Shown here: positions 528 through 52,503 of the stretch, piece after piece | How the letters are laid out: each line of letters opens with the position of its first letter | How positions within the stretch are numbered: position 1 is the first letter of the stretch | Assembly (NCBI GenBank): GCA_964633425.1 | Contig: CAZWFX010000005.1 | Location: forward strand, 1,750-65,749 | Reading direction: 5' to 3' | Source: an uncultured Candidatus Saccharibacteria bacterium | GTDB taxonomy: Bacteria; Patescibacteriota; Minisyncoccia; Phycocordibacterales; UBA2100 | Length of the DNA: 64,000 nucleotides | Translations under genes and position numbers: made by a program | The notes under the pieces: generated by a model | The model's input: only the letters and a program-made list of their open reading frames with translations | Database searches by the model: none | What the model was told of the DNA's origin: nothing

Positions 528-1844
528 TTAGCGACTTTCCGCCGTAACGGTCGACGTTGCAGTCGACTTGAGTTCATGGATCTCGAAATCCCGTTGCGGA
601 ACCAAAACCTTGGCTAAGTAGAGCCACGTACCACCAGAAATTACGATGACGAGCAGTACAAAGACAAAGAAGAGGCGGTATTTCGCAAAGAAGCCGCCAA
701 TAGTCATCGGCTCTACATAGCCTGGGGTCTCGAGGCGCATCCGCTGTGCAGGAGCAGCCCCAATGGATCGCAGATCCACGACCCCCTCTTTGATCGGCTG
801 CACGAGCGCTTGGAGCGTCGATACGGGCTCGCGCGACGCGATGCGGCGATCGGGAACATCCGGATGGTCGGTAATGCCGAGATGCGCCCGCTCAAGAGAG
901 AGCGCGCGGCGAATGTAGCGGCGAATAAACCAGGTCATCAGGAGGACGATCGCTATAATAGTGCCGATCGTGATCGCGGCCGGCACAACCGGAATTACCC
1001 AGAAATACGTCGTTGCCGACGTGTTTTGCTTTTCGTCGTCGCCGTAGTTGAGGGTTACGACAGCGCTGTAGCGACCGATATCAAACGAGTTCTCCTCGCC
1101 ATTCCACGAGAACTCAAACTTCCGGATCGAGCGAGGCAATACGTTGCCGAACGTGCTCTTTTCGTTTATCAGCACCTGTCCCCGTTCTTTACCCCACATG
1201 TTGTAGATCGTGATCGAACCCTGCGGTCGAAGATGCGTGTTCCCCGTGTTCTCAAATCGCAGCGCAAAGCGCGCCTCCGGGCGCTGGTAGAGCGTTTTCT
1301 CGGGTGTAAATTCCCGAATGCGACCACTCTCGATGATCTCGCCCTTAATACGAACGAAAAGCAGCGATGTGACGAGACTCGAGACTTTCATGTGAGAGCC
1401 TTTGATCTTGTCCGGTCCTTCGTACGGACCGACCATGATGGCGGCGTAGTGCCCTCCGGGGTCGGCATTTTCGGGCGTATGAACGGTAAACTCGATCTGG
1501 CGGCTTTCCCCCGCAGGTATCATGATCGGATCTTTGGATATTTCGATCCACGACCCGAGTGAACTCCCCGATGATGATCCGTTCGCGAACGATTCGATCA
1601 ACGGTACAAAGGTCGCCTGACCGGATTCCCCCTGCGTTTCAAAATCAACGACCTGCGCCGCGTACTCCATATCGTAGGAGTTATTGTTTACGACTTTCAC
1701 ATTACTGGACCAGGTATCGCCCGGATTCAACGAGAGCTGAAACAGCGGCGGTGTAACGGTGACCGACAACGATTCTTGTGCGAATGCCGGCAGTGCGCCG
1801 GCGATCACAACAAACGCGAATAGTGCGATGAAGCGCTTTACCAT
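528..1844 (-). CDS. Membrane-anchored cell-surface protein with two beta-rich domains (CscA / DUF916-DUF3324-like topology), paralog 1
   Basis: 438-aa ORF with signal peptide MVKRFIALFAFVVIAGALPAFAQE. Domain motifs LSVTVTPPLFQLSLNPGD and FENTGNTHLRPQGSITIYN. TM segment VIPVVPAAITIGTIIAIVLLMTWFI followed by RRYIRR. The family name is pattern recognition only. Confidence 0.8.
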   Translation of the reverse strand: MVKRFIALFAFVVIAGALPAFAQESLSVTVTPPLFQLSLNPGDTWSSNVKVVNNNSYDMEYAAQVVDFETQGESGQATFVPLIESFANGSSSGSSLGSWIEISKDPIMIPAGESRQIEFTVHTPENADPGGHYAAIMVGPYEGPDKIKGSHMKVSSLVTSLLFVRIKGEIIESGRIREFTPEKTLYQRPEARFALRFENTGNTHLRPQGSITIYNMWGKERGQVLINEKSTFGNVLPRSIRKFEFSWNGEENSFDIGRYSAVVTLNYGDDEKQNTSATTYFWVIPVVPAAITIGTIIAIVLLMTWFIRRYIRRALSLERAHLGITDHPDVPDRRIASREPVSTLQALVQPIKEGVVDLRSIGAAPAQRMRLETPGYVEPMTIGGFFAKYRLFFVFVLLVIVISGGTWLYLAKVLVPQRDFEIHELKSTATSTVTAESR

Positions 1845-1846
1845 AC

Positions 1847-3190
1847 TCAGGAACCGTTCTTTAGGTTGATGACGTGACCTTCTTTGCGCGGAGTCGGCGC
1901 GGTCATCTGGGTGGATGTGAGATCGATGGTCGCCTGTGTGCGCGGCGCACTCGTACGAGCTGCGGGTACCGGCGCTCGGACGGGCTCCGGCACTGGAACG
2001 CGTGCCGGTGTCGGCTGTTCGGACACAACGGGCGTTGCCGCTACCGAAACGGGTGCCGCTGCTTCTTGAGACGCCTTCTTCTTGAAGAAACGGAAACGCG
2101 AAAAGAATCCGCTCTTTGTAGGCGTATCTGCCTTCTCTTCCGTAACAGGTGCAGGCATGATCGCCGCAATAGGCGCAGCGTTAACCGGAGTGATCATTCC
2201 GGGCGGTGCAGAGAGCGCTGCGGCACCGCCGTGCATCGAAGCAAAGCGTTGCATGTGTTTGTGCTCGAGCCACCGGTGGAAATACAGCGCCGAGATGATG
2301 ATCGCGATAATGCTTACGGTCAGAAGCGCAAGCAACTGCTGCCACGGAATGATCCAGAAAAAGACCGTGTCCTGCAGCGTACCGTTCTGGTTGTTGCCGT
2401 AATCGATATTCAAAAACGCCTTGAACTTTCCGAACCCCTGCGCACTGCTCCACGCCGAGGCCAGCTGCGCCTTTTGTTCGGGTGTAAGGCTTTTTCCCTC
2501 GGCGTTCACGGGGATCGATGCGACCTCCCGACCCTTGCGGTCGTAGATCCTGATCTCGCCCTTCGGTTTTAACTCCTGATTGCCGATGTTTTCAACCTGG
2601 TAGTTGAACAGCACATCGTCTCCGGAAAAAAAGAATCCGTCGGTCATGAATTTATTCAATTGCATCGACTCCTTGATATCGGCCTGGACCTCTGTATTTA
2701 CGGTCACTACCGAGAGCGGGTTCTGTGTTTCGGCCCCCTCGCGTGCACTCCCCTCGTAGAACGAAATGTCGGCGTGGTACGTATCCGGGAGGGCATTGAG
2801 GCTCACACGTATCACAAACGGCACTTCGCGCGTCTCTCCGGGACTCAACTCGATGACTCCGCGCGATATTTCGATCCAATTTGCGAGTGAATCCTGCCGA
2901 TCGGTTGCATCCTGCGCGGAAACAAATGCTTCCTGCCCGTCTTTCGGCTTCACGTTGTTAACCGACGGATAGAGCATGATCTTTCGCTGCGATGTATTGG
3001 TGAGCGTGATCGTTTCTTTCAGGATATCGCGCGCCTTTGCTTTTTCGTCGATCACGACCGGACTCACGGTCATAGTTGCTGCAACCTGCGCGTGAGCCGA
3101 AACCGGCGTGATGACAGCGAATGCGAGCGATGCCAGCAGAAAAAATCCGATCCTCAATCGCTGCGTCATAGAGTTCGTTCCGCTTAGCAT
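1847..3190 (-). CDS. Membrane-anchored cell-surface protein, paralog 2 of the 528..1844 product
   Basis: 447-aa ORF separated by 2 nt from the next gene. Signal peptide ends PVSAHAQ. Same layout as paralog 1 (MTVSPVVIDEKAKARD, VENIGNQELKPKGEIRIYD), TM LLALLTVSIIAIIISALYF and an Ala/Pro-rich tail. The start could instead be M8 (3169). Confidence 0.8.
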   Translation of the reverse strand: MLSGTNSMTQRLRIGFFLLASLAFAVITPVSAHAQVAATMTVSPVVIDEKAKARDILKETITLTNTSQRKIMLYPSVNNVKPKDGQEAFVSAQDATDRQDSLANWIEISRGVIELSPGETREVPFVIRVSLNALPDTYHADISFYEGSAREGAETQNPLSVVTVNTEVQADIKESMQLNKFMTDGFFFSGDDVLFNYQVENIGNQELKPKGEIRIYDRKGREVASIPVNAEGKSLTPEQKAQLASAWSSAQGFGKFKAFLNIDYGNNQNGTLQDTVFFWIIPWQQLLALLTVSIIAIIISALYFHRWLEHKHMQRFASMHGGAAALSAPPGMITPVNAAPIAAIMPAPVTEEKADTPTKSGFFSRFRFFKKKASQEAAAPVSVAATPVVSEQPTPARVPVPEPVRAPVPAARTSAPRTQATIDLTSTQMTAPTPRKEGHVINLKNGS

Positions 3191-3222
3191 AACAAGGATT
3201 AGAGCTGCTTTTTATGCACAAC

Positions 3223-4569
3223 TTAAAAGACGGGGGTAACAATATAGAGAATCGCTCCCTGATATGACCCTGCGTCCTGCAAATCATTGACTTCGATCTT
3301 GTAGATGATGTCCGTCGTCTCGTCCGTCGCCGGACCGGAACCGAACGCGACCTCGGTCGGAACCGATGTGAATTTTGCAAACGAATCATCCGCGGCAAAC
3401 CGTGTGGAACCTCCTTCGAGCACATCTTTTCCGGTGTGGTAGCCGTAACATCCGGTCGACGTAGACGTACAGCCCGTACTCCAACCTAGCGGCGCGTCGT
3501 TCGTTGCTATAAAAGGAGAGATCTCTTTCGACGTGGCGCTCAGGAGTCCCTGTCGCTGGTATGTGTACACCTTGTATCCTGACCCTGCGTTCGTGGATAC
3601 CGTAAGTCGATGCGCAGCGATCGTCGGCGCTCCGAGCGTAAGCGTTCCGAATCCGACCGTAGTCGGCGACGTCGTTACATCGGTCACCACACCTTCCGTG
3701 GATGTTCCCGATGCGAGTCCCCCGATCGAAAAGGTCAGCGTGCCGCCTGCGACGGTGAGGCTCGGGTATGTTGCGCCCGTGTTCAATCCAAGCGGAGAAC
3801 CTGTTTCTGCGTCGACGAGACGGAAAAAGTACACCGTACTTTGCGGTGCGTTTGATTGCTTGATCGTAAGGTCGTATTCACGACGCGTACTCGGCCAATG
3901 GAAAAAGAGCGACGTCGAGGTGCCCGACTCGTTATACGTACCGCATCCGTCTCCAACACCGCCGGAGCAACTCTGCGAATCTGACAACAAATTAGACTGG
4001 ACAGGCTGATTGTCGGTGCCGCCTCCGTCTGCATAGCACCATGTCGTCGTGCCGCAGGTGCCCTGCTCGCCCACAAACGAAACTCCTTCGGAAAAATCGG
4101 ACGATGTCGCGAATTGCAGTCGCAGTTTTACATGTGTGACGCCGGCACCGCTGTCGTCCTTTACGGTGATGCGAAGTTTCAACGGATCGTCGTAGCCCAC
4201 GGCGGACGGGGCGACGTTTTCCGACGCAAATGGGATCGTCGGTTCATCGTTCACTGAATCGTCGTACCAACGCCAGTTCTGCGTGACGAGCGGAGTTGTA
4301 TCAGCCGGATACAAATACCCACCGGCGAGCAGGAAGTGCGTACTCTGAGATTCCCCGTCGGCAATAGGCTGCAATGTGCCGAACTGTTTGAAATTCGACG
4401 TTGTGGAGTATCCGCCAAGCTGCGTAAAGCCCGAGTCATTGAATTGAAAGTTCGAGCTCGACAGTTGGTCTGCAAACACGTACGACGTTGTCAGCGCACA
4501 CAGCACCGCCGCGACGAACGCGCCGATTGCTTTTCGCTGTGTACGGGAGACATACATATTATTGTGCAC
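3223..4569 (-). CDS. Secreted Ser/Thr/Gly-rich beta-type surface protein (possibly WxL-like C-terminal domain)
   Basis: 448-aa ORF with signal peptide ending TTSYVFADQ. Contains the segment TVGFGTLTLGAPTIAAHRLTVSTNAGSGYKVYTY and ends AGSYQGAILYIVTPVF. Lies in the same operon as the two anchored paralogs. Confidence 0.75.
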   Translation of the reverse strand: MHNNMYVSRTQRKAIGAFVAAVLCALTTSYVFADQLSSSNFQFNDSGFTQLGGYSTTSNFKQFGTLQPIADGESQSTHFLLAGGYLYPADTTPLVTQNWRWYDDSVNDEPTIPFASENVAPSAVGYDDPLKLRITVKDDSGAGVTHVKLRLQFATSSDFSEGVSFVGEQGTCGTTTWCYADGGGTDNQPVQSNLLSDSQSCSGGVGDGCGTYNESGTSTSLFFHWPSTRREYDLTIKQSNAPQSTVYFFRLVDAETGSPLGLNTGATYPSLTVAGGTLTFSIGGLASGTSTEGVVTDVTTSPTTVGFGTLTLGAPTIAAHRLTVSTNAGSGYKVYTYQRQGLLSATSKEISPFIATNDAPLGWSTGCTSTSTGCYGYHTGKDVLEGGSTRFAADDSFAKFTSVPTEVAFGSGPATDETTDIIYKIEVNDLQDAGSYQGAILYIVTPVF

Positions 4570-6385: not shown

Positions 6386-9300
6386 TTATCGATCGGTCTC
6401 TATATAAATTCGATTGATGCCAATTCGTGCAGCGTTTGCTGCGGTGTTTGCAGCATTACTCATACATGCGTGTGCTGCCATCATCGTCGTATTTACAGGC
6501 AAGTCAGTCGCTATTGATCCATCTGCAATTTTGGTGCCGGTATTGACGTCGTCCATCTGCCAATACACAACAGTGTCATTTGGTTTTGCAAACAGATAGA
6601 ACGCATACCCATTGTTTGTCGCGAGCGCGGGCTGTCCTGCAATCGTCACCACCGTTGAAGAGCCGGTGTTGTCATTGGTGATCAAAGAGATAGACGTACT
6701 CGCGGCATTGATTGCAAATCCGATGGTATTGAGATGATTTGTCAGCTGCTGGGTACATACAGCGGTAGCGGTTGCGGCAGAGAGCCCTACAAACAGTCGA
6801 TCGCCGGCTGTCCACGTCTCCAAGCCCACTCGGGCCGCAAAGAAGAATCCTCCTTGCCCGGTCGTGCCGCCTCTGAAGAACATCGCTTCCGAACGAGTCC
6901 CCACCTGCTGGTTTAGCGTCGTCACGACAGAGGGAAACTGAGACCGACGCTGCGTCGTGTAAAAATTCGTTGTTGTCGGCAAAACAATGACAGGTGTACC
7001 GGAGTTTCCGCCGACTGTACCAGTCCACACACCGGCAGCTACTTGCGGCGTAAAGTACACAAGATTGTTCTGCCAAATTGCTGCTTGGAACGGAGTATCG
7101 ACTCCCGATGGTCCAACCCACTTCGGCACGGTACGCCCGCCGATTTCCTTCGCATAAATATTGAGTTCGCCTGAAGGTGGTGCAACAGGATCGGTAGTCG
7201 TTGAAAGCGAGAGAATACCCATACCGTTTACTGCAAACATGGTGCGGCCCGTGCTCGATGCGATAGTGAGAAGATCAGTGGTCTGCGTTGTGGATGTGCC
7301 GGTAAGCACGAGACCTGCCGTCGGAATCGACCACGTGAATCCGGCGTTCGCTGTAAACGAACCGTCGATGTTTCGGTATTGCACATTACCTGTGGAGCTT
7401 GCCGCCTGACCGCCGCACGTTACCCAGCCGCCGTTGTAGCAGCGGAACTCGCCGATATTCGAGTTGAAATACATCGATCCGTCGATACCCGTCGGGTCAC
7501 CCGCCGTGTTCTTCGTGTCGAGCACTAGGAGCGACGGGTTCGATCCGCCGGTGCCGAGCGTGACCCGGTTCGTCGACGGTGTGATCGCGAGCATCTGAGC
7601 GGTCGTGCTACCGAATGTGAGTCCCGAATTACCCTGCAGTGAAAGTACGTTGGACGACGTTGCAGCGATCGTGCGTGCGTAGAACTGTGTTGCCTCGAGC
7701 AAGCTCGAGGTCGCATTTCCGAACTGCTGCAAGCCTGTCCAAAGATTCGGATTGGAAAGGTTCAGCGAGATACCGACGTTGCCGGCGTTCGGGTTCACGG
7801 TCAGGGTCGTGTTGGTAGCGCTCACCGAGTTGACTGCACCGCTGATGCACACACCGTTCATAGCGAAGCATCCGCCCGTAAGGTTGATACCCTGTGAACC
7901 CGTGGACGTGGCCGAGAAGTTGAGTCGTGTTGCACTCACCCCTCCCGAGAAGGTCGATGTCGAGTTCGTGCCCGTAACATTGATGACACCGGCGATGGTC
8001 GATGTCCCCGTTGATCCGCCCTGCAATATCGTGCCGTTCGCTGCGCCGATAGAAAGCTGTTGCAATGCCGAGATCGCGGTCGTTGATGCGTATGGTAGCT
8101 GAGAAGCCGTATTGCTTGTCGCGTTAAAGCTCGACGCAGTGGGGGTTGATGATGCGACGACCGTCCCCTGCCCGTTAGTCGCAAGCAGTCCGTTACGAAT
8201 ATTCGAGATCCACAGGTCGGTCGTGGATGCGATGTTGATGCCCGTAATGCTGTTTGCAGCAGCGGCAACGGATCCCGTGAGTGAGAAGCCCGCGAGTGAA
8301 CCGAAGCGCGCAGATGTCGAGAAGAGGTTCGTCGAGGATGCGACCCCGGTAAAGAGCGACGTGGTGGTAGCACCGGTCGCCGTGATGTTCGCGAATGCGT
8401 TCACACCGATGAACGTATTGTTCTTGTAGGTCGTCGGCACCGTTGTTGATGACTGCATGTAGTAATCGGTCGATGACGTCGAGAAGAAATAGCCCTTATC
8501 AAACAGCGCGAGTGTGCTGGTCGAGAGTCGGCTGTTAAACGAATTCCAATCGGTGGACGAAAGGTAGCCGTTTTGTGCGGCGCCGGACTGTGTGAGCGTG
8601 AGGATGCCGCCGTTGTACGAGAGCGGTCCGGAGAATGTGGTCGCCTGCACTGCGCCGTTCACACCGGATCCGAGTAGACCATTCGAGATACCGACCACCA
8701 GGTTCGTGGTCGATGCGATGCCGGTCGAGATAACAGTGGTGGTTGCGCCGGTGGCAGTGATGTTTTGGAACGAATTCGTACCTGTGTAGGTGTTGTTCTT
8801 GTATGTGGTAGGAACAGTCGTCGACGACTGCATGTAGTAGTTCTGCGACGTGGTCGAGAACGACGCCCCCTGATTTTGTGACGTAAAGTACGCAGCCGAC
8901 GTTGTAGAGAACGAGAGTCCGAGGGTCGAGAAGTACGATGCCGAGGTGGTCGAGAAGAAATTATTCTGCGATTTCCAGTAGTCTGTCGATGTCGTCGAGA
9001 ACGCGAGGCCCGATGCCGCAAATACCGATGCGGATGTAGTCGAGAAGAAGAAGCCTTTGTCGATGAGAGCAAGCGTCGAGGTCGACAAACGGCTATTAAA
9101 CGAATTCCAATCCGTCGATGAAAGGTAGCCGTTTTGTGCGGCGCCCGACTGTGTGAGCGTAAGGATGCCGCCGTTGTACGAGAGCGGTCCGGAGAATGTG
9201 GTCGCCTGCACGACTCCATTTGCACCCGTACCGAGCAACGCATTGGACAGGCCCGAGACGACAAGATTCGTCGTTGAGGCGATGCCGGTCGAGATAGCAG

Positions 9301-12300
9301 TTGTGGTTGCGCCGGTTGCAGTAATGTTTTGGAACGAATTCGTACCTGTAAACGTGTTGCTCTTGTATGCAGTCACGACCGTCGTCGACGACTGCTGATA
9401 ATAATTCTCCGAAGTGGTCGAGAACGACGCCCCCTGGTTCTGTCCGAGGAAGTACTGCGCCGAGGTGGTCGAAAACGCAAGTCCAAGCGCCGAGAAGTGC
9501 GAGGCACTCGTGGTCGAGAAGAAGTTGTTCACGCTTCGCCAATAGTCGGTGGAGGTGGTCGAGAACGAAAGACCGCTCGCCGAAAAGACCGATGCCGACG
9601 TGGTCGAGAAGAACTGTCCCCTATCTATAGTATTGAGCGACGACGTGGAGAGTCGGCTATTGAACGAACTGAAATCCGACGACGAGAGGTAGCCGTTTTG
9701 AGATGCGCTTGCCTGCTGGATCGAGAGCGTGCCGGCGGAGAACGAAAGCGGTCCTGAGATTGTCGCGGCCGAAACGACGCCACCCGACCCTGTGTAGAGC
9801 ATGGAATTCTGAAGGGTTGAGATAACAAGGTTCGAGGTTGACGCACTATTCGTAGAGAGCGCGGTCGTAGTTGCACCGCTCGCAGTGATAGCGCCGAACG
9901 CATTGGTGCCCGTGAAGGTATTGTTGGTGAACGTTTTCGGAACGGATGTCGATGCTGCAAGGTACTGATCCACGAGTCCGTTGCTGAAGTACTTGTTGGT
10001 CGTACCCTGTGCGAGCGCATCGGTTGTGGTGCCTGCGATCACACCGGCAACGCGTGTCGGCGTGTAGTAGAGATTGCTGCCTTCGGCAAGATCAGTGGTC
10101 GACTTCGTAGCGAGCCACGCATCTGACGATGTTGTCGCCCATCGGTTCTGTGTTCCCTCCCAGTAGTTCACCGATGTGGTCGAGAAGAAGTAGCCCTTGT
10201 CGTAGGTCGACAAATTGAACGCCGCAGAGGTTGTCGAGAACGCCGCACCCTGATTGAGCGCGAGGAACGCGGAGGCCGAGGTGGTGGAGAAGAAGTATCC
10301 CTTGTCATAGGTCGAGAGGTTGTATGCCGTCGATGTGGTCGAGTGGAAATTGTTCTGCGTTTTCCAGTAGTCTGTTGAGGTGGTCGAGAACGCGCCGCCA
10401 AGATTCTGTCCGAGGAAGTACTGCGCCGAGGTGGTCGAAAACGCAAGTCCAAGCGACGAGAAGTGTGACGCACTCGTTGTCGAGAAGAAGTTGTTCACGC
10501 TTCGCCAATAGTCTGTGGAGGTGGTCGAGAACGAAAGACCGCTCGCCGAAAAGACCGATGCCGAGGTGGTCGAGAAGAAATTATTCTGCGTCTTCCAGTA
10601 GTCGGTCGAGGTGGTGGAGAACGTATTGCCCTGATTCTGCGAAACAAGTGCCGATGCCGCCACGAGATCGTAGCCGCCTGATGCATTGCCCACGAGCACC
10701 TGACCGTTCTGCGGAGCAGTCGAGGTTCCTGTGCCGCCGTTTGATATGCCCAGCACGCCGGTCACATCGCCGGCGAGGTTTACGAGCGTCGAGGTAACGA
10801 CACCGGCAACCGACTTGAGTACACCGCTTGCTTTGCCGAACGTGAATCCGTTGGATACGACGAGGTTCGACGTCGACGCGCTTGTACCGATCGATACCGA
10901 GTATGTGCTCGACGCGAGCGATACGGTATTGGTGCTGGTCGAGAGATCCCAGTAACCGGATGCACCGGATGCCCCGCCGCCGTAGCTCTCCAGCGCCACA
11001 GCCGCATCGACGAATTTCGGCAATACCAATACCGCGATTGTTCCCTGGCCGCCGCCGCTATAGCTCTCGAGTGCCTGACCGAGTGCGTATCCGGATTTCG
11101 ACAGCTTGATACCGACGCCCGGTACATCAGAAGCGGCGATAAGATCGCCCGCATTGATCGTGCCGTTCGCGGTCGAGACCGTGGTGCGGATCACGCCGGC
11201 AAAACCGACAATGTACGCATTCGCTTCGCCCTCAAGATTTGCGTTACCGACGAACGCCGCATTGTCCGACACGACGCCGATCAACGACTCGCCCGCCGTC
11301 GCCTTTCGGTACTCACCGTTCGAGTTGAGCGAGACGATGTCTCCCACTGCCGCAGATTCGCTGAGCTGCATGTATTCCGCAAAGTCGGCCGCGCCGGAGG
11401 TCTGTGTGATACCGGTTCCCGCGGTCGACAGACGGAGGCTGCCGACGCTGCGTCCGCCCGTGTCTGACCCTGAAGTCACGCCCGTGAAATATTCCTCGAA
11501 TCGCGGACACGTTGTTGCGCTCGTACACGCCGTTGCGTACGGCGTTCGAAGGTTGAGGCGTAACACATTGTTACCGGACGAAAGCGTATTGTTGTCGTTC
11601 GAAATTGCAACGATCGCTGTGCCTGTGGCACCGGTCGCACCGGTGGTCTGGCCCATGAACGAATACTTGTAGTTCGTGGTCGTCGTACCAAACGCCACCG
11701 GTCCCGAGATGGACGACGTGGCGGTGGTCGATGTTGCGCTAAAGCTGCCGAACAAACTGCTCACCGCCGATAACACGTTTGCAAAGAGCGAGGTCGAGGT
11801 GCCCTGCACGAACGTGATGTTCGAGAAACTGTTCGTTCCGCTGAACGTGTTGTTCGTATATGTCTTGGGGATTGTTGTGGATGCATCGACAAAATAATTT
11901 GCCGAAGTGGTCGAGAACGCAGCACCCTGATTCAACCCGAGGAAATATGCGGTAGACGTTGTCGAGAACGCAAGACCGAGCGACGAGAAGTGTGAGGCGC
12001 TCGTTGTCGAGAAGAAGTTGTTAACGCTTCGCCAATAGTCGGTCGAGGTGGTCGAGAACGAAAGTCCACGAGCCGAGAACACCGACGCCGAGGTGGTAGA
12101 GAAGTAGAAGCCCTTATCGACACCATTCAAGTACGTTTGGACCCGACCGTCCGAGTAGTACTTATTGTTCGTTCCCTCAGCAAGCGCATCGGTGGTGGTG
12201 CCTGCGATAACCCCCGCTACGCGCGTCGGCGTGTAGTAGAGGTTGCTGCCTTCGGCAAGATCAGTGGTCGACTTCGTGGCAAGCCACGCGTCTGAGCTTG

Positions 12301-18332: not shown

Positions 18333-19118
18333 ATGTTCCACAGGATCGCTGATTTCGTGCACAGAATCGGCATTCTTCACGCCGTTGCCGTCTTAGTGCT
18401 CCTCACGGCATCCACGACCGTACTCATCAATCGCGGCGACTCGATCGTGACGCTGATCGCGGGGAGCGCCGCATCAATGGGAAACGAGACCGTGCTCTAC
18501 ATCTCCCCTCACAGCTCATCCACGCTGAAAGTCGGCGAGACAACCGATGTCGACATACGCATCAACACGAAAACTCCGATCAATACGGTCGGCGCGACCA
18601 TCAAGTTCCCCGAGGACATGATCGAGATCGTGGGTATCAGCAAGGAAAACTCGTTCCTGGATCTGTGGACCGAGGAAACGAGCATCAAAGAAAAGCTCGG
18701 GGAGGTGCATTTTTCGGGTGGCACCATCGAAGGTGGCGGGCTTTCGGGCATCGGTACCATCGTTACGCTTTCGCTCAAGGCAAAGAAATCCGGCTCCGCA
18801 CAGCTGTCGTTCAAGGATGCGCAGATATTCGCAGCCGACGGAAAAGGCACGGAGGTACAGAGCAGCAAGCGCATCTATACGTTTGAGATCCCGGATGAGG
18901 CCCCCGCATCCGGCAGCACGGCCGCTTCAAAAATGAATGACGAGACACTTGCCCCGCCGACAATCGACTTCAACGGCGACGGCAAAGTGAACGTTGTCGA
19001 CCTTTCGATCATCGCAATCCAGATTATCGCGCCGTATAACGCGAAGTACGATCTTGATCGCGACGGCGCATGTAATCTGGCCGACCTGTCGATCTTCTTT
19101 GCGCGAATGCGTCAGTAG
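18333..19118 (+). CDS. Cohesin-like domain protein with C-terminal dockerin-like repeats
   Basis: 261-aa ORF with an N-terminal TM. Cohesin-like segment LYISPHSSSTLKVGETTDVDIRINTKTPINTVGATIKFPEDMIEIVGISKENSFLDLW...GEVHFSGG. Dockerin-like duplicated Ca-binding segments IDFNGDGKVNVVDLSIIA and YDLDRDGACNLADLSIFF. Confidence 0.75.
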   Translation: MFHRIADFVHRIGILHAVAVLVLLTASTTVLINRGDSIVTLIAGSAASMGNETVLYISPHSSSTLKVGETTDVDIRINTKTPINTVGATIKFPEDMIEIVGISKENSFLDLWTEETSIKEKLGEVHFSGGTIEGGGLSGIGTIVTLSLKAKKSGSAQLSFKDAQIFAADGKGTEVQSSKRIYTFEIPDEAPASGSTAASKMNDETLAPPTIDFNGDGKVNVVDLSIIAIQIIAPYNAKYDLDRDGACNLADLSIFFARMRQ

Positions 19119-20087
19119 TTACACGATCCGCTTTGTTGCGGCACGGCGGTTATACAAAAATCCCAGTGAAATGCCGGCAACAATGAGCGCGAGCAGGTAC
19201 GGCATCGCCATCAACAGCATCGGTGTCAGGCTCTCAGCTACAGCGGCAAATGCGTTGCCACCCACGGAGATAACGACCTTGTCGGACATGAGTGTCTCGC
19301 TGGTTCCTGCCGCGGTCGCCCACGCGCGATATATGCCACGCTCGGCTTTCTCGCGGGCAACGTATGTGAACGAACCGTCGCGGGTCGTAAGCACAATGCT
19401 TTCGATCGGCGTGTCATCATCATGCTGCAGATACACCGTGATCGACGAATCCGGCGTGGCACTTCCCTGCAAGGTGATGCGGTTGCCGACCGCTACACGG
19501 TCGTCATAACCGCTGATATTCGGGACAGAGATCTGTGCACCTTTCACCTCAGGCACGATGGGTTCGGTCTCGGTTGCAGCGACTGTTTCAAGCGGAGCCG
19601 GCACGTCCTGTTTTGCAACGATCGTAAGATTGGCTGATCGCATTGATGTAATGATGTTCATCGCACGCGCGTTGTTCTCGAGTATGGCACCGGATTCAAT
19701 GTGCAGGTCGGCCGCATGTACCCCGATCGCCCGGAAGGTTATCCGGATGAGTCGTGCGTCGCGCGCATTGAATCGCTCCGCTGCAGTTCCCGAGAATCTG
19801 ATCGTTCCCTTGGTATTCGAGAATTCGGGTGGCGTCGGCCAGAGCGCGAGCACCGAACCGTCGGTCGAGATCTTTTGGACCGCGAGCGACTGCGGATTGA
19901 ATGCAATATCGGCCTCTGCGGCAAACGAGGCGGTTCCGTCGGTGTCTGCCAGCACGTCGACCACGAATTCACTGTCGAGCGTATAGGTGCCGTGATCGGG
20001 AGAAATGTAGAGTACGCCTTCGGCTGCGAACGCAACCCCCGGTAGAGCAAACAGGCACACTCCTACTAGTGCGAGGTACCGTTTCAT
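19119..20087 (-). CDS. Cohesin-like domain protein, C-terminal TM anchor
   Basis: 322-aa ORF with signal peptide LFALPGVAFAAEG. Segment VLYISPDHGTYTLDSEFVVDVLADTDG...VLALWPTPPEFSNTKGTIRFSG. C-terminal TM MLLMAMPYLLALIVAGISLGFLY. Its start overlaps the upstream stop (ATGA at 20084-20087). Confidence 0.75.
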   Translation of the reverse strand: MKRYLALVGVCLFALPGVAFAAEGVLYISPDHGTYTLDSEFVVDVLADTDGTASFAAEADIAFNPQSLAVQKISTDGSVLALWPTPPEFSNTKGTIRFSGTAAERFNARDARLIRITFRAIGVHAADLHIESGAILENNARAMNIITSMRSANLTIVAKQDVPAPLETVAATETEPIVPEVKGAQISVPNISGYDDRVAVGNRITLQGSATPDSSITVYLQHDDDTPIESIVLTTRDGSFTYVAREKAERGIYRAWATAAGTSETLMSDKVVISVGGNAFAAVAESLTPMLLMAMPYLLALIVAGISLGFLYNRRAATKRIV

Positions 20088-21037
20088 GCGTCGGCGGAGG
20101 CCTTGCGCTTACGGTCGCGATACCACATGTATCCGCCCAGCAGGAGCAGTCCGACGACGACTGCGATCGCGATCGAGTAGTCGGTCTCTTCCGGAACACG
20201 CGGTGCCGCACTGCCCTGTACATACGTACCCATGCGTTCATTACCCGCTTTGTCGATCGCTTTTATCTGAATATTGAGCAGGTGCTGATCCTTCAGCTGA
20301 TGCGGGGACGTAACAGGCCGCCAGCTTCCGCGCTCAAAGATCTCGTAGTGGTCGAGTCCGCTCTGTTTATCCTCGGTCGAAAAGACTGCATAGTAGTCGC
20401 CGCCGAATACACCGCGCGTTGATTCAACCGTAATCACGAATTCATCGGGAGGAGTCTTGTCGTCTCCGACCTGCGCGAGCCACGGATTGGTAGCGGAGAG
20501 CGGTGTCGGCCTGATCGAATAGATACCGCTCTGACGGGAGAGCTCGGCACGACTGCCCTGTCCGTCGTTCTTGTATACAGCAGAGCCTTCCTCGACGGAC
20601 ACGGTCGCGCTTTTTTGTTCGGCGCCAACCACACTAAAGACAATCTTGCCGAGCACATTGGAGAGCACCGGGTCGCCGGGGATTCGTCCGCAATAGCCTC
20701 CCGGGATACCGCCGGAGAATGTAATTGTGCCCTTATCAGTATCGATCTTCGGCTCTTCGATCCACAAACTGAGAATCGAGTTGCCCTTACTGAAATCGAC
20801 GGCTCGGAGTGTTTCGGTCGGGTAGCGGATCTCGACATGAATGGCGTTCACACATTCGTTCTGGTTGTCGAGGCGAATGTCGGTGATAAACGTGTCGGTG
20901 AGGCCGTACGTTCCCTCGGTCGGGTTCACATATATGGTGGCCGCATCAACAAGGGCCGGAACAGCGAACGCAGCGCAGAGGGCGAAAGCGATCAAAACGC
21001 GATTCATACGAGCAGTATAGCGGTTTTTTGGCATCAT
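20084..21037 (-). CDS. Cohesin-like domain protein, C-terminal TM anchor
   Basis: 317-aa ORF with a signal peptide. Segment ATIYVNPTEGTYGLTDTFITDIRLDNQNECVNAIHVEIRYPTETLRAVDFSKGNSILSLWIEEPKIDTDKGTITFSGG. TM IAIAVVVGLLLLGGYMWY. The start may be M11 (21007). Confidence 0.75.
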   Translation of the reverse strand: MMPKNRYTARMNRVLIAFALCAAFAVPALVDAATIYVNPTEGTYGLTDTFITDIRLDNQNECVNAIHVEIRYPTETLRAVDFSKGNSILSLWIEEPKIDTDKGTITFSGGIPGGYCGRIPGDPVLSNVLGKIVFSVVGAEQKSATVSVEEGSAVYKNDGQGSRAELSRQSGIYSIRPTPLSATNPWLAQVGDDKTPPDEFVITVESTRGVFGGDYYAVFSTEDKQSGLDHYEIFERGSWRPVTSPHQLKDQHLLNIQIKAIDKAGNERMGTYVQGSAAPRVPEETDYSIAIAVVVGLLLLGGYMWYRDRKRKASADA

Positions 21038-21039
21038 AT

Positions 21040-22176
21040 TTATCCGGTCCAGTTAAACAACATGATCGAAAAGTCTCCCAGGTTGACCGTGCCGTCGGCG
21101 TTGAAGTCGCTCTGAATGTCGTCGGACTGCCATTTCAAAAGAAATATAGAGAAGTCGACGAGGTTCACTTTGCCGTCGCCGTTGAGGTCAGCAGAGCCCG
21201 TATCGGCAAATGCTCCCTCGCCCACACTGAACGATATCGACTTACCGAATCCAGACTGAATGCTTGTGTCGAGTTTGAAGTACGATTTTACGGTGTGCAT
21301 ACCGTCGGTAAGTGACGAGGTATCAACACGCAACGCCCATGCCCCCGTGCCGTCGGCAGTTGCGTTCAGTGTGGTTTTTGTACCGCCCCCGATCTCGCTC
21401 GAAATACTTGCTTTCGGCACCGAAAACCCGGAGACCGTCAGCGGTTCCCCTTTTGGAACCTGACGTTCGCTCACCTGGATAGTGGGCGGGAAGAACACGT
21501 TTGCAACGGTGGATACCGCGCTCTGCGCCACATCGAACACAACCGATGTCGTGACCGATTCTATGCCGTTGGAATCTTTTGCTGTGAAGCCGAACGTTGC
21601 GGTCCCCGGCGTAATCTCGGTTGATATGAACTGGAAGTCGGCATTCGAATCCGCCAGCGCGGTACCTTTTATCTTTCCGTCGAGCAACACATTTACGACC
21701 GCGTTCGGGTAGGCCTTGCCGCGCAGCACGACGCGCGTCTGTGTTTCTGATGCAATAGTGCCCGCTTGTGCACCGGGAATGAACGGTGTCGAGCCGACGG
21801 TCGGAGATCCCGATACCGTGGAGCCTGCCGGAGCGAGTGTGCGGCACGATAGAGAACACAGGTCAGTCGCGATCGTGTTTCCGTCATCGCACTGCTCGCC
21901 GAACCGGGCCTGCAAAATACCATCGCCACAGTAGTTGTCGTATGCAATGCAGCCGGGCATGCATTTACGCTCGGCGGTCGTGGAACCGTAGCCGCCGAGG
22001 TTGATGCCGTCGTCACACACTTCAACACCGCCACCGTTTATACCGTCGCCGCACACAAGCATCGAGAGCGACGTCTGCACATCCGCGGCAAACGCGAATT
22101 GGATCATGATGCCGAGCAAAAATGCTGCGACGACAATGAGGCCCGGTACCGCGAGACGTTTGTCGGCCATATGCAT
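21040..22176 (-). CDS. Secreted Cys-rich-repeat (CxxCDDGN type) protein with Ig-like domains and C-terminal dockerin-like repeats
   Basis: 378-aa ORF with a signal peptide. Cys-rich segment VCGDGINGGGVEVCDDGINLGG...YCGDGILQARFGEQCDDGNTIATDLCSLSC. C-terminal ADLNGDGKVNLVDFSIFL and SDFNADGTVNLGDFSIML. Confidence 0.75.
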   Translation of the reverse strand: MHMADKRLAVPGLIVVAAFLLGIMIQFAFAADVQTSLSMLVCGDGINGGGVEVCDDGINLGGYGSTTAERKCMPGCIAYDNYCGDGILQARFGEQCDDGNTIATDLCSLSCRTLAPAGSTVSGSPTVGSTPFIPGAQAGTIASETQTRVVLRGKAYPNAVVNVLLDGKIKGTALADSNADFQFISTEITPGTATFGFTAKDSNGIESVTTSVVFDVAQSAVSTVANVFFPPTIQVSERQVPKGEPLTVSGFSVPKASISSEIGGGTKTTLNATADGTGAWALRVDTSSLTDGMHTVKSYFKLDTSIQSGFGKSISFSVGEGAFADTGSADLNGDGKVNLVDFSIFLLKWQSDDIQSDFNADGTVNLGDFSIMLFNWTG

Positions 22177-25256: not shown

Positions 25257-26465
25257 CTATTTGTAGCGGATCGCGTCGAGCGGGTTGATCTTTGCGGCGC
25301 GCCGAGCCGGAAACAGTCCCGTGAGGAACCCCACCCCGCCCGAGAACGAGCAAATGAATATAAGGAACCAGACCGGGTATTTGAACAAACTGACTGATTC
25401 CCCTCCGAATTTACTTGCAGCCACCGAGAGGAGTCCGTTGAAGAACATGCCGATGCCTCCCCCGATGAGGATCCCCACCACACCGCCCAACAAACCCACG
25501 ATAATGGCCTCTGCCACGAACAAGATAACGATGTCTTTTGACGATGCGCCGATCGTACGCATAACACCGATCTCGGCCGTACGCTCGAGGAGCGTAACGG
25601 TCATGGTGTTGAACATACCGATCGCGGATACCGTAAGCGCGATGCCGCCGAACACCGCGAGGATCACCTGGATGCCCTGAAAGATCTTGTTCGCTTGTTC
25701 GACCGTCTTTGAGAGTGCGGTCACGGTAAAACCCTTAGCAATGATGGCGTCCTGGGCGAGCGGCAGTGATTTGGTGTCGATTACACGCACCTGCACGCGA
25801 TCGAAATACGGAATCTTAAAATTGGACTGAAACTCCTCGAGCGTAATCGCTGCTGACAGGTTGCCGGTGTCGGCCGTTACGCCCTTTATCTTGTACTGCT
25901 TGGGCAGCTGCACTTCTGTCGTTGATTCACTGCCTTCGTTCGGGACAAATACGCGAAATGTAAGCGTTTTACCGAGTACCTCTTCCGGATCTTCGACACC
26001 GAAGAGCTTGAGCATGGCGCTGCTGATCACAACCGCATTGCGATCGGTCTCTGCGTCCTCATTCGTGAACAGATCCCCTGCCGCAGCCTGCGCGCCGGTA
26101 TACAAAAAGTACGATGGCGCGAGGCCCTGAATGTTGGCGTTACCGGTGAGTCCCTGATACGTGACAAGTGTCGGGAACGTGACCACACCTGAAACATCTT
26201 TGACGGTGTCCATCGCCGCGAACGCTTCGGTTGTAGGCAAGTCAAGCACAACGATCTTTGACGCGGGGTTCGAAACGTTGAGCGAGAGCAGCGAGTCGCC
26301 GAGCACGATCTTGTCGAGAATGATGCTCTGGAGACCGAAGCCCAAACCCACGAGCGCCACAACGGCACCGGTTCCCACGCCCATGCCCAAAATCGTAAGC
26401 CACGTACGAGACGGGTTCGTTTTGAACATACGGGTCGAAAGCAATGCGATGTCGCGTACCTGCAT
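25257..26465 (-). CDS. ABC transporter permease, FtsX/MacB type
   Basis: 402-aa ORF with N-terminal TM (WLTILGMGVGTGAVVALVGLGFG), a large extracytoplasmic domain and three C-terminal TMs with FtsX-like ...RTAEIGVMRTIGASSKDIVILFVAEAIIVG... Sits 1 nt after the ATPase gene. Confidence 0.85.
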   Translation of the reverse strand: MQVRDIALLSTRMFKTNPSRTWLTILGMGVGTGAVVALVGLGFGLQSIILDKIVLGDSLLSLNVSNPASKIVVLDLPTTEAFAAMDTVKDVSGVVTFPTLVTYQGLTGNANIQGLAPSYFLYTGAQAAAGDLFTNEDAETDRNAVVISSAMLKLFGVEDPEEVLGKTLTFRVFVPNEGSESTTEVQLPKQYKIKGVTADTGNLSAAITLEEFQSNFKIPYFDRVQVRVIDTKSLPLAQDAIIAKGFTVTALSKTVEQANKIFQGIQVILAVFGGIALTVSAIGMFNTMTVTLLERTAEIGVMRTIGASSKDIVILFVAEAIIVGLLGGVVGILIGGGIGMFFNGLLSVAASKFGGESVSLFKYPVWFLIFICSFSGGVGFLTGLFPARRAAKINPLDAIRYK

Positions 26466-26466
26466 A

Positions 26467-27813
26467 TCAAGTGTGGCCTCCCTCCAGTTCGTTCGGGAGA
26501 ATTACGTACCCGCCTTGGGCGATAAGTTTTTCCATGTGCACCGCGATCTTGTATCCCATGCGCTCCTCGAATCCTGCGCCACCCATTTCGTTGTTCAACA
26601 AGAGCCTTTCACTGAACTGCTCGGCGTCGGTGATGCCGCCCACCCGATCCGCTACCGCTTCGCGGAGCGTGCGCAGCTGCTCCTGCGAACACTGAAACCC
26701 GACTTCTTCTTTCAGGTACGTGAGCAGGCGCTCAACGAACTTTTGTTGGTGCATGAACATGTTGTCGCTCTGGGTCTCGCTTCGGAATCGCTGCACGTCG
26801 ATCGAGTACCGGATCAGACTGAACACCCTGCTTGCCATCGGTCCCACTTCTTCCGGCGGAATACCGACACCGCCCAGATGAAACGGCTTCCCCAAAAACT
26901 CCGAGAACATCTGTTCGTTCATGGTGCCCTTGAGCACATACAGAATTGCCTCTTCGAGGCGCTGTACCTGGCTGAATCCGATCGACTGCGTGACGAAGTT
27001 CACGACGCTCTTCACTTTCAACTCCACCGGTTCTGCATACGGATACATACGGGCAAGCTGCTCGATTTCGGTCACGATAGTCTCGCCGGGCTTTGTGCGT
27101 TTAACCTGCTCTTTCTGCGGATTAACGACGATACGGCGTAGTTTGCCGTCGCGCATGTAGAAGACCCGGTGCGCATACGGAAGGTACTTTGCGTCGTGCG
27201 TAACGAGGATCACGGTTTTGCGGTCGCGCTCATTAATCTCTTGGAACGAATCCATAACGTGCTCCGCGGAAATGGAGTCCAGGTTACCCACCGGTTCGTC
27301 GGCGAGCAGAATTTCCGGGTCGTTGATGAGCGCGCGTGCAACTGCAACTCGCTGCTGCTGACCGCCGGACATTTCCACCGGAAGTTTGTTCTCGACGCGT
27401 TCCGGCACTCCGAATCGGCGCAACAGCTGCGCCGCGCGTGCCAGGCGTTCCGCCGGCTGTATACCCAAAAAGAGCATCGGTAGCGCGACATTGTCGATGA
27501 CGGAGAGCGATGAAATCAGGTTGAACTGCTGGTACACGATGCCGATTGTTGTCTGCTGATAGCGGTTCAACTCCTCGGGCGTATACGCATAGATGTCTTC
27601 GTTCTGCACGAACATGTGGCCGTCGGACGGCGGAATACCGCCGAGCATGGTGTACAAAAGTGTCGACTTTCCGCACCCGGACGGACCGAACAGAATGATG
27701 TATTCACGAGGATAAATCTCTACGTTTACGTCCTGCAGCGCCTTGAATTCGTTCGACTTACCCTTGTTGTAGGTAATGAACATTTTATCGGTTCGGATGG
27801 AAGTTTTTGCCAT
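26467..27813 (-). CDS. ABC transporter ATP-binding protein (MacB/Lol-type) with a ~220-aa C-terminal extension of unknown function
   Basis: 492-aa ORF trimmed to M45 (MAKTSIRTDKMFITY), 1 nt after the upstream stop. Walker A GPSGCGKSTLL, signature LSGGQQQRVAVARAL, Walker B ILLADEPVGNLD. A helical extension follows the ABC core. Confidence 0.9.
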   Translation of the reverse strand: MAKTSIRTDKMFITYNKGKSNEFKALQDVNVEIYPREYIILFGPSGCGKSTLLYTMLGGIPPSDGHMFVQNEDIYAYTPEELNRYQQTTIGIVYQQFNLISSLSVIDNVALPMLFLGIQPAERLARAAQLLRRFGVPERVENKLPVEMSGGQQQRVAVARALINDPEILLADEPVGNLDSISAEHVMDSFQEINERDRKTVILVTHDAKYLPYAHRVFYMRDGKLRRIVVNPQKEQVKRTKPGETIVTEIEQLARMYPYAEPVELKVKSVVNFVTQSIGFSQVQRLEEAILYVLKGTMNEQMFSEFLGKPFHLGGVGIPPEEVGPMASRVFSLIRYSIDVQRFRSETQSDNMFMHQQKFVERLLTYLKEEVGFQCSQEQLRTLREAVADRVGGITDAEQFSERLLLNNEMGGAGFEERMGYKIAVHMEKLIAQGGYVILPNELEGGHT

Positions 27814-27814
27814 A

Positions 27815-29254
27815 CTATTTGCCGATGTTGTTGACCCAACCGAACGTACCCTGGAAGTTCTGGAGAATGATGTCGATGATCGACTTTTCCTTAATCGGCG
27901 TAATAAGCACGAAGTCTTCCGAACGACTTTCGTTCTGACCCTCATCGTTACAGACCACCCAGAATTGATAGACGGTGCCCGGCGTAAACCCGACGATGAC
28001 CGAGGTGTGCGAGGTCAACGGGTTGGTTTCTTTCGGTACGAATTCTGCGCCCGTGCCGCCGTTTCCGGTCGAGAGTCCCTGTGAGTAAAACACCTGACAG
28101 GTTGCAGGCTCGTCAGTCTCCCACGCGATAATTGTCTGGATTTTCACGTCTTCCCCGGGGAAAAGCGTCGATTCGTTCTTTACCTTTGAAATTGCCGGCG
28201 GGATCACGTCGCGGATGGTAATGAACTGGAACGGTTGGCTCTCGGCATTGTCGCCGTCCTGGTTGGTCGTTCGAATGACTGCGGTATATCGTGTACCGAA
28301 CTCAAGGTCGGCGAGCTGCACATTCTGATTCGCCGCAAAAACCGATGAGCCCGCAACTTTTGTGATCTTAGTGCGTGTATTCGTGTATTCGACGATGCCG
28401 CGGGCAAGCACCCCGCCCGTATCCCATGAAATCACGGCTGATTTTTCCTGAATTCTGTTCACTTTTACGTTTCGAATCGAAGGGAGGATCGATTTAGTCT
28501 TGAACGTATCGTCTTCGCTCTCACCGGCAAGCCCTGTTGAGTCGTCGGAAACGACCTTAAAGTGGTAGAGCGTCGACGGCTCGAGCCCGATGACCTCAAC
28601 CGTATGCTTAGACTCAGACGCGTTCGGGTCCCCCTGCGCGATCGTGTAGTCGTTTGATGAGCCGGTGTAATCACTGTCTGGCGACAGGTACACCATGGAG
28701 CTTGATTCGCGGTCGGTCGTCCACACAATAGTCGCCTTGGTCTGATCCACAGTCACGCGTGGGAGACCGAGGATGGTGGGCGGCTTCAATATGTCGCCGG
28801 CGGTTTCTTTTACCTGCTCATTGATCTCGAGAATCGCTTCGGGCTCTTTGATCTTCTTGATGTCCTTGATAATGCGCTCTTTGATCTTCTGCTGATCGTC
28901 TTTTGTCGTGAACACATACCCTGCGGTCGTGCTTTTGTTCCCCTCTTCGTCCGTCGAGACCACGCGGAAGTGATAGGTAGTCGCGGGTTCCAGACTGTCG
29001 ATGGTGAGCGTGTGGTCTTTTTTATCAAATGCACTGTCGCGCACGGTGCCGAAACGCTCATCAAGACCGAAATTGATGGTTGCATCCGTCTTTTTATCGG
29101 TCGACCACGATACAGTCGCCGAATCCGACTTTACGTCGGTGATCTTTACATTGGATATTTCGGCGGCATATGCGCGAAACGCAATCACGACGATCGCAGC
29201 GGCACACAGTGTGATGCATATCGCTTTGATCCGTGCGTGTATCGAGTGTTGCAT
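27815..29254 (-). CDS. Secreted protein with repeated fibronectin type III-like domains
   Basis: 479-aa ORF with a signal peptide. At least four FN3-like units (ISNVKITDVKSDSATVSWSTDKKTDATINFG...LEPATTYHFRVVSTDEEGN; ...LEPSTLYHFKVVSDDSTG; ...FGTRYTAVIRTTNQDG; ...FTPGTVYQFWVVCNDEG). Confidence 0.85.
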   Translation of the reverse strand: MQHSIHARIKAICITLCAAAIVVIAFRAYAAEISNVKITDVKSDSATVSWSTDKKTDATINFGLDERFGTVRDSAFDKKDHTLTIDSLEPATTYHFRVVSTDEEGNKSTTAGYVFTTKDDQQKIKERIIKDIKKIKEPEAILEINEQVKETAGDILKPPTILGLPRVTVDQTKATIVWTTDRESSSMVYLSPDSDYTGSSNDYTIAQGDPNASESKHTVEVIGLEPSTLYHFKVVSDDSTGLAGESEDDTFKTKSILPSIRNVKVNRIQEKSAVISWDTGGVLARGIVEYTNTRTKITKVAGSSVFAANQNVQLADLEFGTRYTAVIRTTNQDGDNAESQPFQFITIRDVIPPAISKVKNESTLFPGEDVKIQTIIAWETDEPATCQVFYSQGLSTGNGGTGAEFVPKETNPLTSHTSVIVGFTPGTVYQFWVVCNDEGQNESRSEDFVLITPIKEKSIIDIILQNFQGTFGWVNNIGK

Positions 29255-51151: not shown

Positions 51152-51192
51152 GCGGGTGCGTTTCGCGGTCACGAAACGTGTGTGAAAATTGA

Positions 51193-51669
51193 TCAGGCCT
51201 TGTTGACCCGGATACGAATGCCCGAACTCTCTCCCTTTTTCAACGGAAGCAGGAGCATCAGCACGCCCTCTTTCATCACAGCCTCGGTACGGTCGGAATC
51301 GACCTCGGAAGGCAAGATGATCTGCCGATAGAAATTTCCCCACGAACATTCTTCGAGGATCTTTTCGCGGCCTTCGGCAGTCGGCAACTGAAAATGTTCA
51401 CCTTCCGGGCGCTTTCGCTCGCCCTTTATCGTGACGATGTCACCATCGCCCTCGATAGTGACGCCAAAATCATCGACGTTCGACCCGGCAAGCTGTGCGT
51501 AGATGATGATGGCTCCTGGAATTTTGTAGATGTCGACCGGAAGCTGTTCATCCGTCGACGGATTACCGGGTGATTTTTCTGCTTGCATCACAACCTTGTC
51601 CTGTTTTTTGTCCTCGGGTGCACCCGGGATCACGTCTTTTGCTTTCAAGCGCTGTAAAAAGGACGACAT
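51193..51669 (-). CDS. Small heat-shock protein, Hsp20/alpha-crystallin family
   Basis: 158-aa ORF with the alpha-crystallin pattern PVDIYKIPGAIIIYAQLAGSNVDDFGVTIEGDGDIVTIKGERK...FYRQIILPSEVDSDRTEAVMKEGVLMLLLPLK. Confidence 0.9.
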   Translation of the reverse strand: MSSFLQRLKAKDVIPGAPEDKKQDKVVMQAEKSPGNPSTDEQLPVDIYKIPGAIIIYAQLAGSNVDDFGVTIEGDGDIVTIKGERKRPEGEHFQLPTAEGREKILEECSWGNFYRQIILPSEVDSDRTEAVMKEGVLMLLLPLKKGESSGIRIRVNKA

Positions 51670-51687
51670 ACAAAGTATTCGTACTCG

Positions 51688-51693
51688 TATTAT
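51688..51693 (-). promoter_or_regulatory. Candidate -10 box (TATAAT) upstream of the Hsp20 gene
   Basis: The minus strand reads GCGCTATAATACGAG. The hexamer ends about 18 nt upstream of the ATG at 51669. No clear -35 element. Confidence 0.25.
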
Positions 51694-51770
51694 AGCGCTA
51701 AACGTTCTCGCGAATGATCCGCGTGCGATGCATTCGTGTGGATAGCATCTTCACGCACTGTGTTTGTGTA

Positions 51771-52361: not shown

Positions 52362-52368
52362 GTAAAAA

Positions 52369-52503
52369 CTATACCGAGTTCGCGAGACTCTGAATGAGGT
52401 CACCGATGAAGTGCAGTATGTACACGATCATGTTGATGAACAGCATGATTATCTGCACGAGAAAATCAAGGATGGTTTTCAGAAATCCGTACAAGGGGTC
52501 CAT
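52369..52503 (-). CDS. Small hydrophobic protein (44 aa), below the ORF-track length cut-off
   Basis: ATG at 52503 and TAG at 52369-52371. Reads MDPLYGFLKTILDFLVQIIMLFINMIVYILHFIGDLIQSLANSV. It fills the gap between the PKD-protein stop (52526) and the lepB ATG (52361). Confidence 0.4.
   Translation of the reverse strand: MDPLYGFLKTILDFLVQIIMLFINMIVYILHFIGDLIQSLANSV

Follow-up and report, generated by a model that had tools for sequence, protein, structure and literature searches.

We analyzed a 64,000-nucleotide (nt) stretch of DNA, referred to below as the window, from contig C5 (CAZWFX010000005.1, positions 1,750-65,749) of assembly GCA_964633425.1, a genome of the class Minisyncoccia in the candidate phyla radiation (CPR). 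The window encodes four proteins with cohesin modules (P1, P2, P3 and P9), two of which belong to a compact cluster with the dockerin protein P4, and we examined whether these proteins together hold secreted proteins at the cell surface. The feature list below gives the position, strand and build of each protein in amino acids (aa); an open reading frame check showed all gene coordinates to be real open frames, and membrane segments and signal peptides were assigned by hydropathy.

P1, 18333-19118, plus strand: 261 aa; N-terminal membrane helix (about residues 11-33), cohesin (residues 61-175, nt 18513-18857) and C-terminal dockerin (residues 212-254, nt 18966-19094).
P2, 19119-20087, minus strand: 322 aa; signal peptide, divergent cohesin (about residues 20-160), beta domain, C-terminal membrane helix and basic tail.
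P3, 20084-21037, minus strand: 317 aa; signal peptide, cohesin (about residues 30-180), small beta domain and C-terminal membrane helix.
P4, 21040-22176, minus strand: 378 aa; signal peptide, short N-terminal strand motif, Cys-rich DUF4215 repeats, two Ig-like domains (residues 148-228 and 245-318) and C-terminal dockerin (residues 325-378, nt 21043-21204), with no membrane anchor of its own.
P5, 22183-23181, minus strand: 332 aa; signal peptide, beta-rich ectodomain, C-terminal membrane helix and Arg-rich tail.
P6, 23271-25220, minus strand: at most 649 aa, start uncertain; Thr/Ser-rich and secreted.
P9, 49667-51151, minus strand: 494 aa; signal peptide, cohesin, Pro-rich linker, beta domain, membrane helix and helical cytoplasmic tail of about 80 aa.

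The genes on the minus strand are tightly packed, with gaps of 6 nt between P5 and P4 and of 2 nt between P4 and P3 and an overlap of 4 nt between P3 and P2. The trio formed by P4, P3 and P2 closes an operon that also holds P6, a probable fiber subunit, and P5, which resembles WxL-interacting proteins. P1 runs toward P2 from the opposite strand, and the two stop codons abut at 19116-19121 with no spacer at all. P9, whose likely start is M67 of a longer frame of 560 aa, lies apart from this cluster, directly upstream of the gene for a giant protein of 6,369 aa; on its other side (49667-52403, minus strand) are an HSP20 gene and a signal peptidase I (S26) gene.

To identify the cohesins we combined the Pfam Cohesin family (PF00963; curated cut-off 24.1 bits) with comparisons among the modules themselves. 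P1 reaches 24.9 bits, and BLASTP connects P2 with P3 (2e-15), P1 with P3 (6e-14) and P1 with P2 (9e-7). Judged by these alignments, the modules of P1, P2, P3 and P9 are clear paralogues. A profile built from the four modules matched 10,936 of 1.84 billion cluster representatives at E≤0.001, of which 5,406 also pass E≤1e-10; our cohesin profile matches the divergent P2 at E 5.4e-48, and PF00963 is in turn matched at E≤0.01 by 32 of 42 scanned family members, the four window proteins being counted among the 42. The Atlas clusters of P9 carry the name "Bacterial Ig-like/Cohesin domain-containing protein." Matches of the cohesin profiles to sequences of solved structures were weak, the best at E 0.028 and 0.039, both to scaffoldin cohesins, so that a comparison at the level of the fold was required. 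P3, the sole cohesin protein that we folded, gave an AlphaFold model in which the mean predicted local distance difference test score (pLDDT) of 10-residue blocks is 76-98 over residues 31-180, mostly at least 92. The top Foldseek matches listed for this model are all cohesins (best 6kgf_C, E 7.7e-10, TM score 0.75), among them type I complexes, OlpA and OlpC as anchors with a single cohesin, and a non-cellulosomal cohesin from Archaeoglobus. The model therefore predicts for P3 the flattened beta-sandwich of solved cohesins. The presence of four cohesin-like proteins, which an earlier note on this DNA had proposed from the letters of the sequence, is thus borne out by Pfam for P1, by paralogy for P2 and P3, and by the fold of P3.

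The dockerins could be assigned more directly, as P1 (23.7 bits), P4 (26.3 bits) and a third protein, encoded on contig C20 (27.4 bits), all exceed the curated cut-off of 22.9 bits for Pfam Dockerin_1 (PF00404). Both window dockerins consist of two loop-helix repeats that carry D or N at loop positions 1, 3, 5, 9 and 12, the positions by which dockerin calcium sites are numbered, in agreement with the duplicated calcium-binding segments described in the earlier note. In 66 relatives of P4, each calcium position is either invariant or kept in at least 90% of the sequences, and the helix residues, too, show little or no variation. The P1 dockerin differs from the P4 type in having neither its Trp nor its WTG end. 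Ahead of its dockerin, P4 matches the Cys-rich repeat family DUF4215 (30.2 bits, cut-off 27), and an AlphaFold model of its tandem Ig domains finds its fold matches among the stalks of adhesins and S-layer proteins, with RbmA as one among many (4be5_A, E 4.8e-5). The C20 protein, a frame of 627-657 aa, ends in an Ig-Ig-dockerin tail like that of P4, the two being 34% identical over 241 residues (E 4e-33), and has a different head. Its gene (Big_13 plus Dockerin_1; locus L004, G000:C20:24000-37038, 7893-12031) lies near a gene resembling WxLIP_PGBD, a redoxin gene and an FtsE/FtsX pair with an FtsX extracellular domain.

A census of the assembly with our own profiles found four cohesin modules, every one of them inside the window and each the only cohesin of its protein, and three dockerin proteins, namely P1, P4 and the C20 frame; the Pfam models agree on the latter, and Pfam detected an enzyme domain in none of the three. 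By hydropathy, P2, P3 and P9 each begin with a signal-like segment and end with a helix that is followed by a basic tail, whereas P1 has an N-terminal helix only and P4 a signal peptide only; the earlier note had counted three cohesin proteins with C-terminal or C-proximal anchors. According to these topologies the membrane carries the sockets, and P4, as the main protein with a plug, is free.

We then asked how far this arrangement extends beyond the window, using a sample of 301 genomes of the class and, for gene order, 29 loci from other class genomes. Homologues of P1 form 85 clusters and those of P4 at least 561, with source names that include Minisyncoccia, Parcubacteria and Paceibacterota. 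A relative of P4 is present in 75 of the 301 genomes, and all 75 hold both modules. Over the whole sample, in which the genomes are related and hence not independent, 102 hold both modules, 10 a cohesin only, 10 a dockerin only and 179 neither. A cohesin gene of the P3 type directly follows the dockerin gene in 28 of the 29 loci, the sole exception being cut by a contig end, and a second cohesin gene comes next in 22. All ten loci for which a wide context was available read dockerin, then P3-type cohesin, then P9-type cohesin, so P2 occupies in the window the usual place of a longer, P9-type protein. In two class genomes (L038 and L042), the dockerin gene is followed by four consecutive cohesin-membrane genes, not two. 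Three near relatives keep the full order of giant gene, helix-turn-helix gene, P0, P1, P2, P3, P4, P5, P6, FtsX and ABC; among the genes of the set, P2 varies most between these relatives and the window (94, 56 and 49% identity). Small frames with a cohesin and a dockerin are found at the same convergent operon end as P1 in G153 and G143. Particular to the window are the putative adaptor P1, the short divergent P2 with P9 standing beside a giant gene, and the Cys-rich head of P4.

To assess whether the two modules could bind each other, we predicted, in three runs and alongside three controls, a complex of the P3 cohesin (residues 28-185) and the P4 dockerin (residues 310-378). The median ipSAE of the three runs is 0.64, compared with 0.34 for the best of the three controls. 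This mark is reached by 116 of 157 solved complexes and by 2 of 215 mismatched pairs. The runs share at least 98% of their contacts, and the pLDDT of the partner is at least 75. The predicted interface involves residues 64-65, 91-93, 108-114 and 153-162 of P3 and both helices of the dockerin; it holds five of the eight near-invariant columns of the cohesin family (N64, A65, G109, D158 and G159) together with invariant dockerin residues. An alignment shows that P2 lacks the NA and DGxG motifs that the family carries at this interface. Since P2 is without these two motifs and the dockerin of P1 is without the Trp and the WTG end, this divergent cohesin and this divergent dockerin may make up a second pair.

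Based on these data, we propose that the set is a non-cellulosomal plug-and-socket surface anchor, a reading to which we assign a probability of about 0.65. In this model, P3, P2 and P9 would be exported by the Sec pathway and retained by their C-terminal membrane helix, each presenting one cohesin outside the cell, while P4 and its C20 paralogue would be secreted with no anchor of their own. Their C-terminal calcium-type dockerins would plug into a membrane cohesin on its flat sheet, pinning stalk and head to the cell. The domains, the topology by hydropathy, the conserved gene order and the co-occurrence of the two modules are observed; binding (modelled for one pair), the matching of particular cohesins to particular dockerins and any function of the Cys-rich head of P4 are inferred. 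P1, which combines a membrane helix with both modules, would act as an adaptor that could add or bridge sockets.

Several observations weigh against this proposal. P9 scores 24.0 bits on Pfam Cohesin, 0.1 under the cut-off, and P2 and P3 taken alone give no cohesin match in the Pfam scan. The dockerins are short, at about 50 residues. P2, having lost two interface motifs, may leave a P4-type dockerin unbound, as far as the alignment tells. The binding of P3 to P4 is a model-based prediction that covers only one of the possible cohesin-dockerin pairs, and its passing score may reflect likeness and not binding, because cohesin-dockerin complexes have already been solved. In addition, 20 of the 301 class genomes hold a single module. 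Finally, the census of the genome itself is approximate because the assembly looks mixed: it amounts to 2.47 Mb in 159 contigs with a contig guanine-plus-cytosine content (GC) of 0.50-0.74, its class-mates measure 0.5-1.9 Mb, and, although its reported contamination is 0.71%, the bin is probably mixed. The two contigs that carry the set, C5 and C20, share a GC of 0.55.

Some of these points would fit an explanation in which the cohesin-fold and dockerin-like modules do not pair at all and serve as structural or ligand-binding parts, for example with the sandwiches binding glycans of a host or wall and the EF-hand-like loops stabilizing the stalk with calcium. The marginal Pfam scores, the weak matches to solved cohesin sequences and the genomes with one module only speak for such a model. 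It does not account for the strict adjacency of the two genes in the class, for their strong co-occurrence or for the fact that the most conserved residues of both modules fall within the modelled interface, and we consider it unlikely. The profile searches and the fold comparison uphold the modules themselves, and complex prediction, which the earlier note had suggested for all pairs, passes its controls for the single pair to which it was applied.

Given that these cohesin and dockerin families are those of cellulosomes, we also considered a degradative complex of that kind. We analyzed the proteins to which dockerins are attached by surveying 20 long dockerin-bearing frames from 17 class genomes, 14 of which match Pfam Dockerin_1 at E≤1e-5. 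Their heads consist of Laminin_G_3, TIG, fn3, beta-helix, MG2, Kelch or Ig domains, and enzyme domains occur in one of the 20, a protein of genome G294 with DUF2961, a GDSL lipase and CBM_4_9. Since the heads are lectin-like, Ig or beta-helix domains and rarely enzymes, the dockerin appears to be a general tail of adhesin-like surface proteins. The G294 protein, which is the one cargo that speaks for degradation, has 1,597 aa and comes from a genome of 1.9 Mb with seven dockerin matches (L058/L059, G294:C16:19500-27550). The other 19 surveyed cargo proteins are non-enzymatic, cohesins occur singly in every protein, a catalytic domain is absent from all three dockerin proteins of the assembly, and no glycoside hydrolase family was found in the 26 window frames scanned with Pfam, a scan that left aside the two giant frames. 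With no multi-cohesin scaffoldin and no dockerin-bearing glycoside hydrolase, we rejected a cellulosome on domain content and regard it as extremely improbable. The view of the earlier note that the set serves the surface for a purpose other than cellulose degradation, and holds no glycoside hydrolase, accordingly stands, as the set is small and closed, with four cohesins and three enzyme-free dockerin proteins. Its description as a surface scaffolding system holds with a refinement: a surface anchor fits, and a scaffold with many sockets does not; the recurring unit is a dockerin protein followed by two membrane proteins with a single cohesin each.

The closest known counterparts of the proposed anchor are OlpA and OlpC of Clostridium thermocellum (complexes 3ul4 and 4dh2), in which one cell-bound cohesin likewise holds one secreted protein with a dockerin tail. 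Chains of this type are matched by the P3 model (4dh2_C, E 1.7e-9; 3ul4_A, E 1.6e-7), and the dockerin is likewise of the duplicated calcium-loop type. OlpA and OlpC are anchored by S-layer-homology repeats. The window differs in its C-terminal membrane helix anchor, its non-enzymatic cargo, its shorter dockerin and its CPR host, and, unlike the cellulosome of C. thermocellum, the window shows no cellulolytic genes. The fold matches of P3 also include the non-cellulosomal cohesin of Archaeoglobus fulgidus (2xdh, E 6.7e-8). Cohesins and dockerins without a part in cellulose degradation are also on record for anaerobic methane-oxidizing (ANME) archaea (PMC9012536). Such non-cellulosomal modules are found in other archaea and bacteria as well, at times on one and the same protein, as in P1. 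These cases are dispersed and differ among themselves, and a fixed operon is not known from them, whereas the type found in the window is a fixed trio across a class.

The genes next to the set invite two further explanations. Directly upstream of P6 lie genes for an FtsX-like permease, an ATP-binding cassette (ABC) ATPase and an Fn3 protein, which together correspond to a MacB/FtsX-type ABC transporter (25257-27945), and the cohesin proteins could be accessories of this transporter, acting as extracytoplasmic partners that it moves or loads. These genes are kept in the three near relatives and in two of the ten wide contexts (L035 and L036). The trio stands with no adjoining transporter of such kind in the other eight, and no feature links the proteins mechanistically, so that we regard this as quite unlikely. 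The earlier note had suggested that the set perhaps organizes envelope or attachment structures next to the giant proteins (3,539 and 6,369 aa). These giants, in which the note itself had seen no dockerin-like segment, match neither our cohesin nor our dockerin profile, and we dropped the link.

As noted above, the trio lies at the end of an operon, after P6 and P5, and the held object may therefore be a filament. P5 is strongly conserved and belongs to a large family (636 homologue clusters, none with a Pfam family), and its Atlas look-alike is a WxLIP cluster (0.93). The comparison of P5 with the family found upstream of dockerin genes in other genomes gives an hhalign probability of 96.6% (E 6.2e-10). 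Members of that family have about 300 aa that run from a signal peptide to a membrane helix, and nine of ten match WxLIP_PGBD (PF06030), all of them under its cut-off of 27.3 bits (best 22.9). P5 itself has no match to this Pfam family, and its profile returned nothing useful against solved structures. Two paralogues resembling WxLIP, at 528-1844 of the window and in the C20 locus (L004:10907-12031), come close to the cut-off with 26.5 and 27.1 bits. With the WxL-interacting proteins of Firmicutes WxL loci (WxLIP_PGBD, WxLIP_HBD), the P5 family has in common its size, signal peptide, two beta domains and C-terminal membrane helix. On this evidence P5 is a relative of WxL-interacting proteins, and it is probably a membrane-held helper or chaperone. 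To our knowledge, WxL loci do not include cohesins or dockerins. Immediately upstream of the dockerin gene, a P5-like gene is present in 22 of the 28 loci with upstream sequence, 11 of these genes having been recognized by the P5 profile and 11 by eye from their length, two hydrophobic ends and N-terminal motif, and the same holds for nine of the ten wide contexts. Orthologues of P6 lie upstream of P5 in four of those ten. P6 has no Pfam family in our scan. When read side by side, the mature N termini of P6 and P4 show a nearly identical short strand motif, and this likeness recurs between the two families in other genomes. The P6 family also has a conserved C-terminal motif, and P6 is a probable fiber or pilin-like subunit.

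A comparable arrangement has been described for the Pam pilus of Candidatus Mycosynbacter amalyticus, a CPR filament formed by donor-strand exchange between pilins with Ig-like folds (Troman et al., bioRxiv 10.64898/2026.03.03.709456). According to the preprint, every component of the Pam operon has a signal peptide, the two-domain PapD-like helpers PamC/D are membrane-anchored, and the filament is said to be held by the membrane helix of PamR, a terminator whose tandem domains resemble RbmA and which bears an additional strand at its N terminus; Pam pilins are reported mainly from Saccharimonadia and Microgenomatia (10.64898/2026.03.03.709456). P5 may be built like PamC/D, with a signal peptide, beta domains and a C-terminal helix by hydropathy, and P4, with its tandem Ig domains, may be built like PamR, except that a dockerin and separate membrane cohesins take the place of the membrane helix. 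The preprint mentions neither cohesin nor dockerin.

The strand motif common to P6 and P4, along with the type of P5, suggests that the trio anchors a filament of the Pam/WxL kind. According to this model, P6 subunits would be polymerized with the assistance of the membrane-held P5, and the N-terminal strand that P4 has in common with P6 would let it attach at the filament end. The P4 dockerin would then plug the finished fiber into the membrane cohesins P3 and P2/P9, and by means of P1 and the C20 paralogue the cell could exchange the mounted parts or increase their number. We put this forward tentatively, as a possibility that falls somewhat short of even odds, for a donor-strand filament built of P6 with P5, ended by P4 and based on the cohesin-dockerin trio.

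Two other regions of the window deserve mention. At 528-4569 (minus strand) three successive frames of about 440 aa, the first of which is the 528-1844 paralogue mentioned above, may constitute a second WxL/Pam-like gene array adjoining the 3,539-aa fiber gene. At 26467-29254 (minus strand) the ABC ATPase frame is unusually long (492 aa) and overlaps the end of the upstream frame, for a protein with four Fn3 domains, by 131 nt; one of the two starts is probably mis-set.

Little is known of how CPR bacteria, which live attached to other cells, build and hold their attachment structures. In the literature on cohesins and dockerins of Parcubacteria and on DUF4215 with dockerin, and in the Pam preprint, we found no published account of the trio or of filament anchoring by cohesin and dockerin. 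An enzyme-free cohesin-dockerin socket would be a simple answer to the problem of fixing secreted fibers on a cell with no outer membrane, and both modules are present in about one-third of the sampled class genomes. The short and highly conserved pair could in addition serve as a new orthogonal docking tag. If the trio does anchor a filament, the cohesin-dockerin pair would gain a filament-anchoring role, in which a non-covalent, exchangeable socket replaces the covalent or single-helix anchors of pili.

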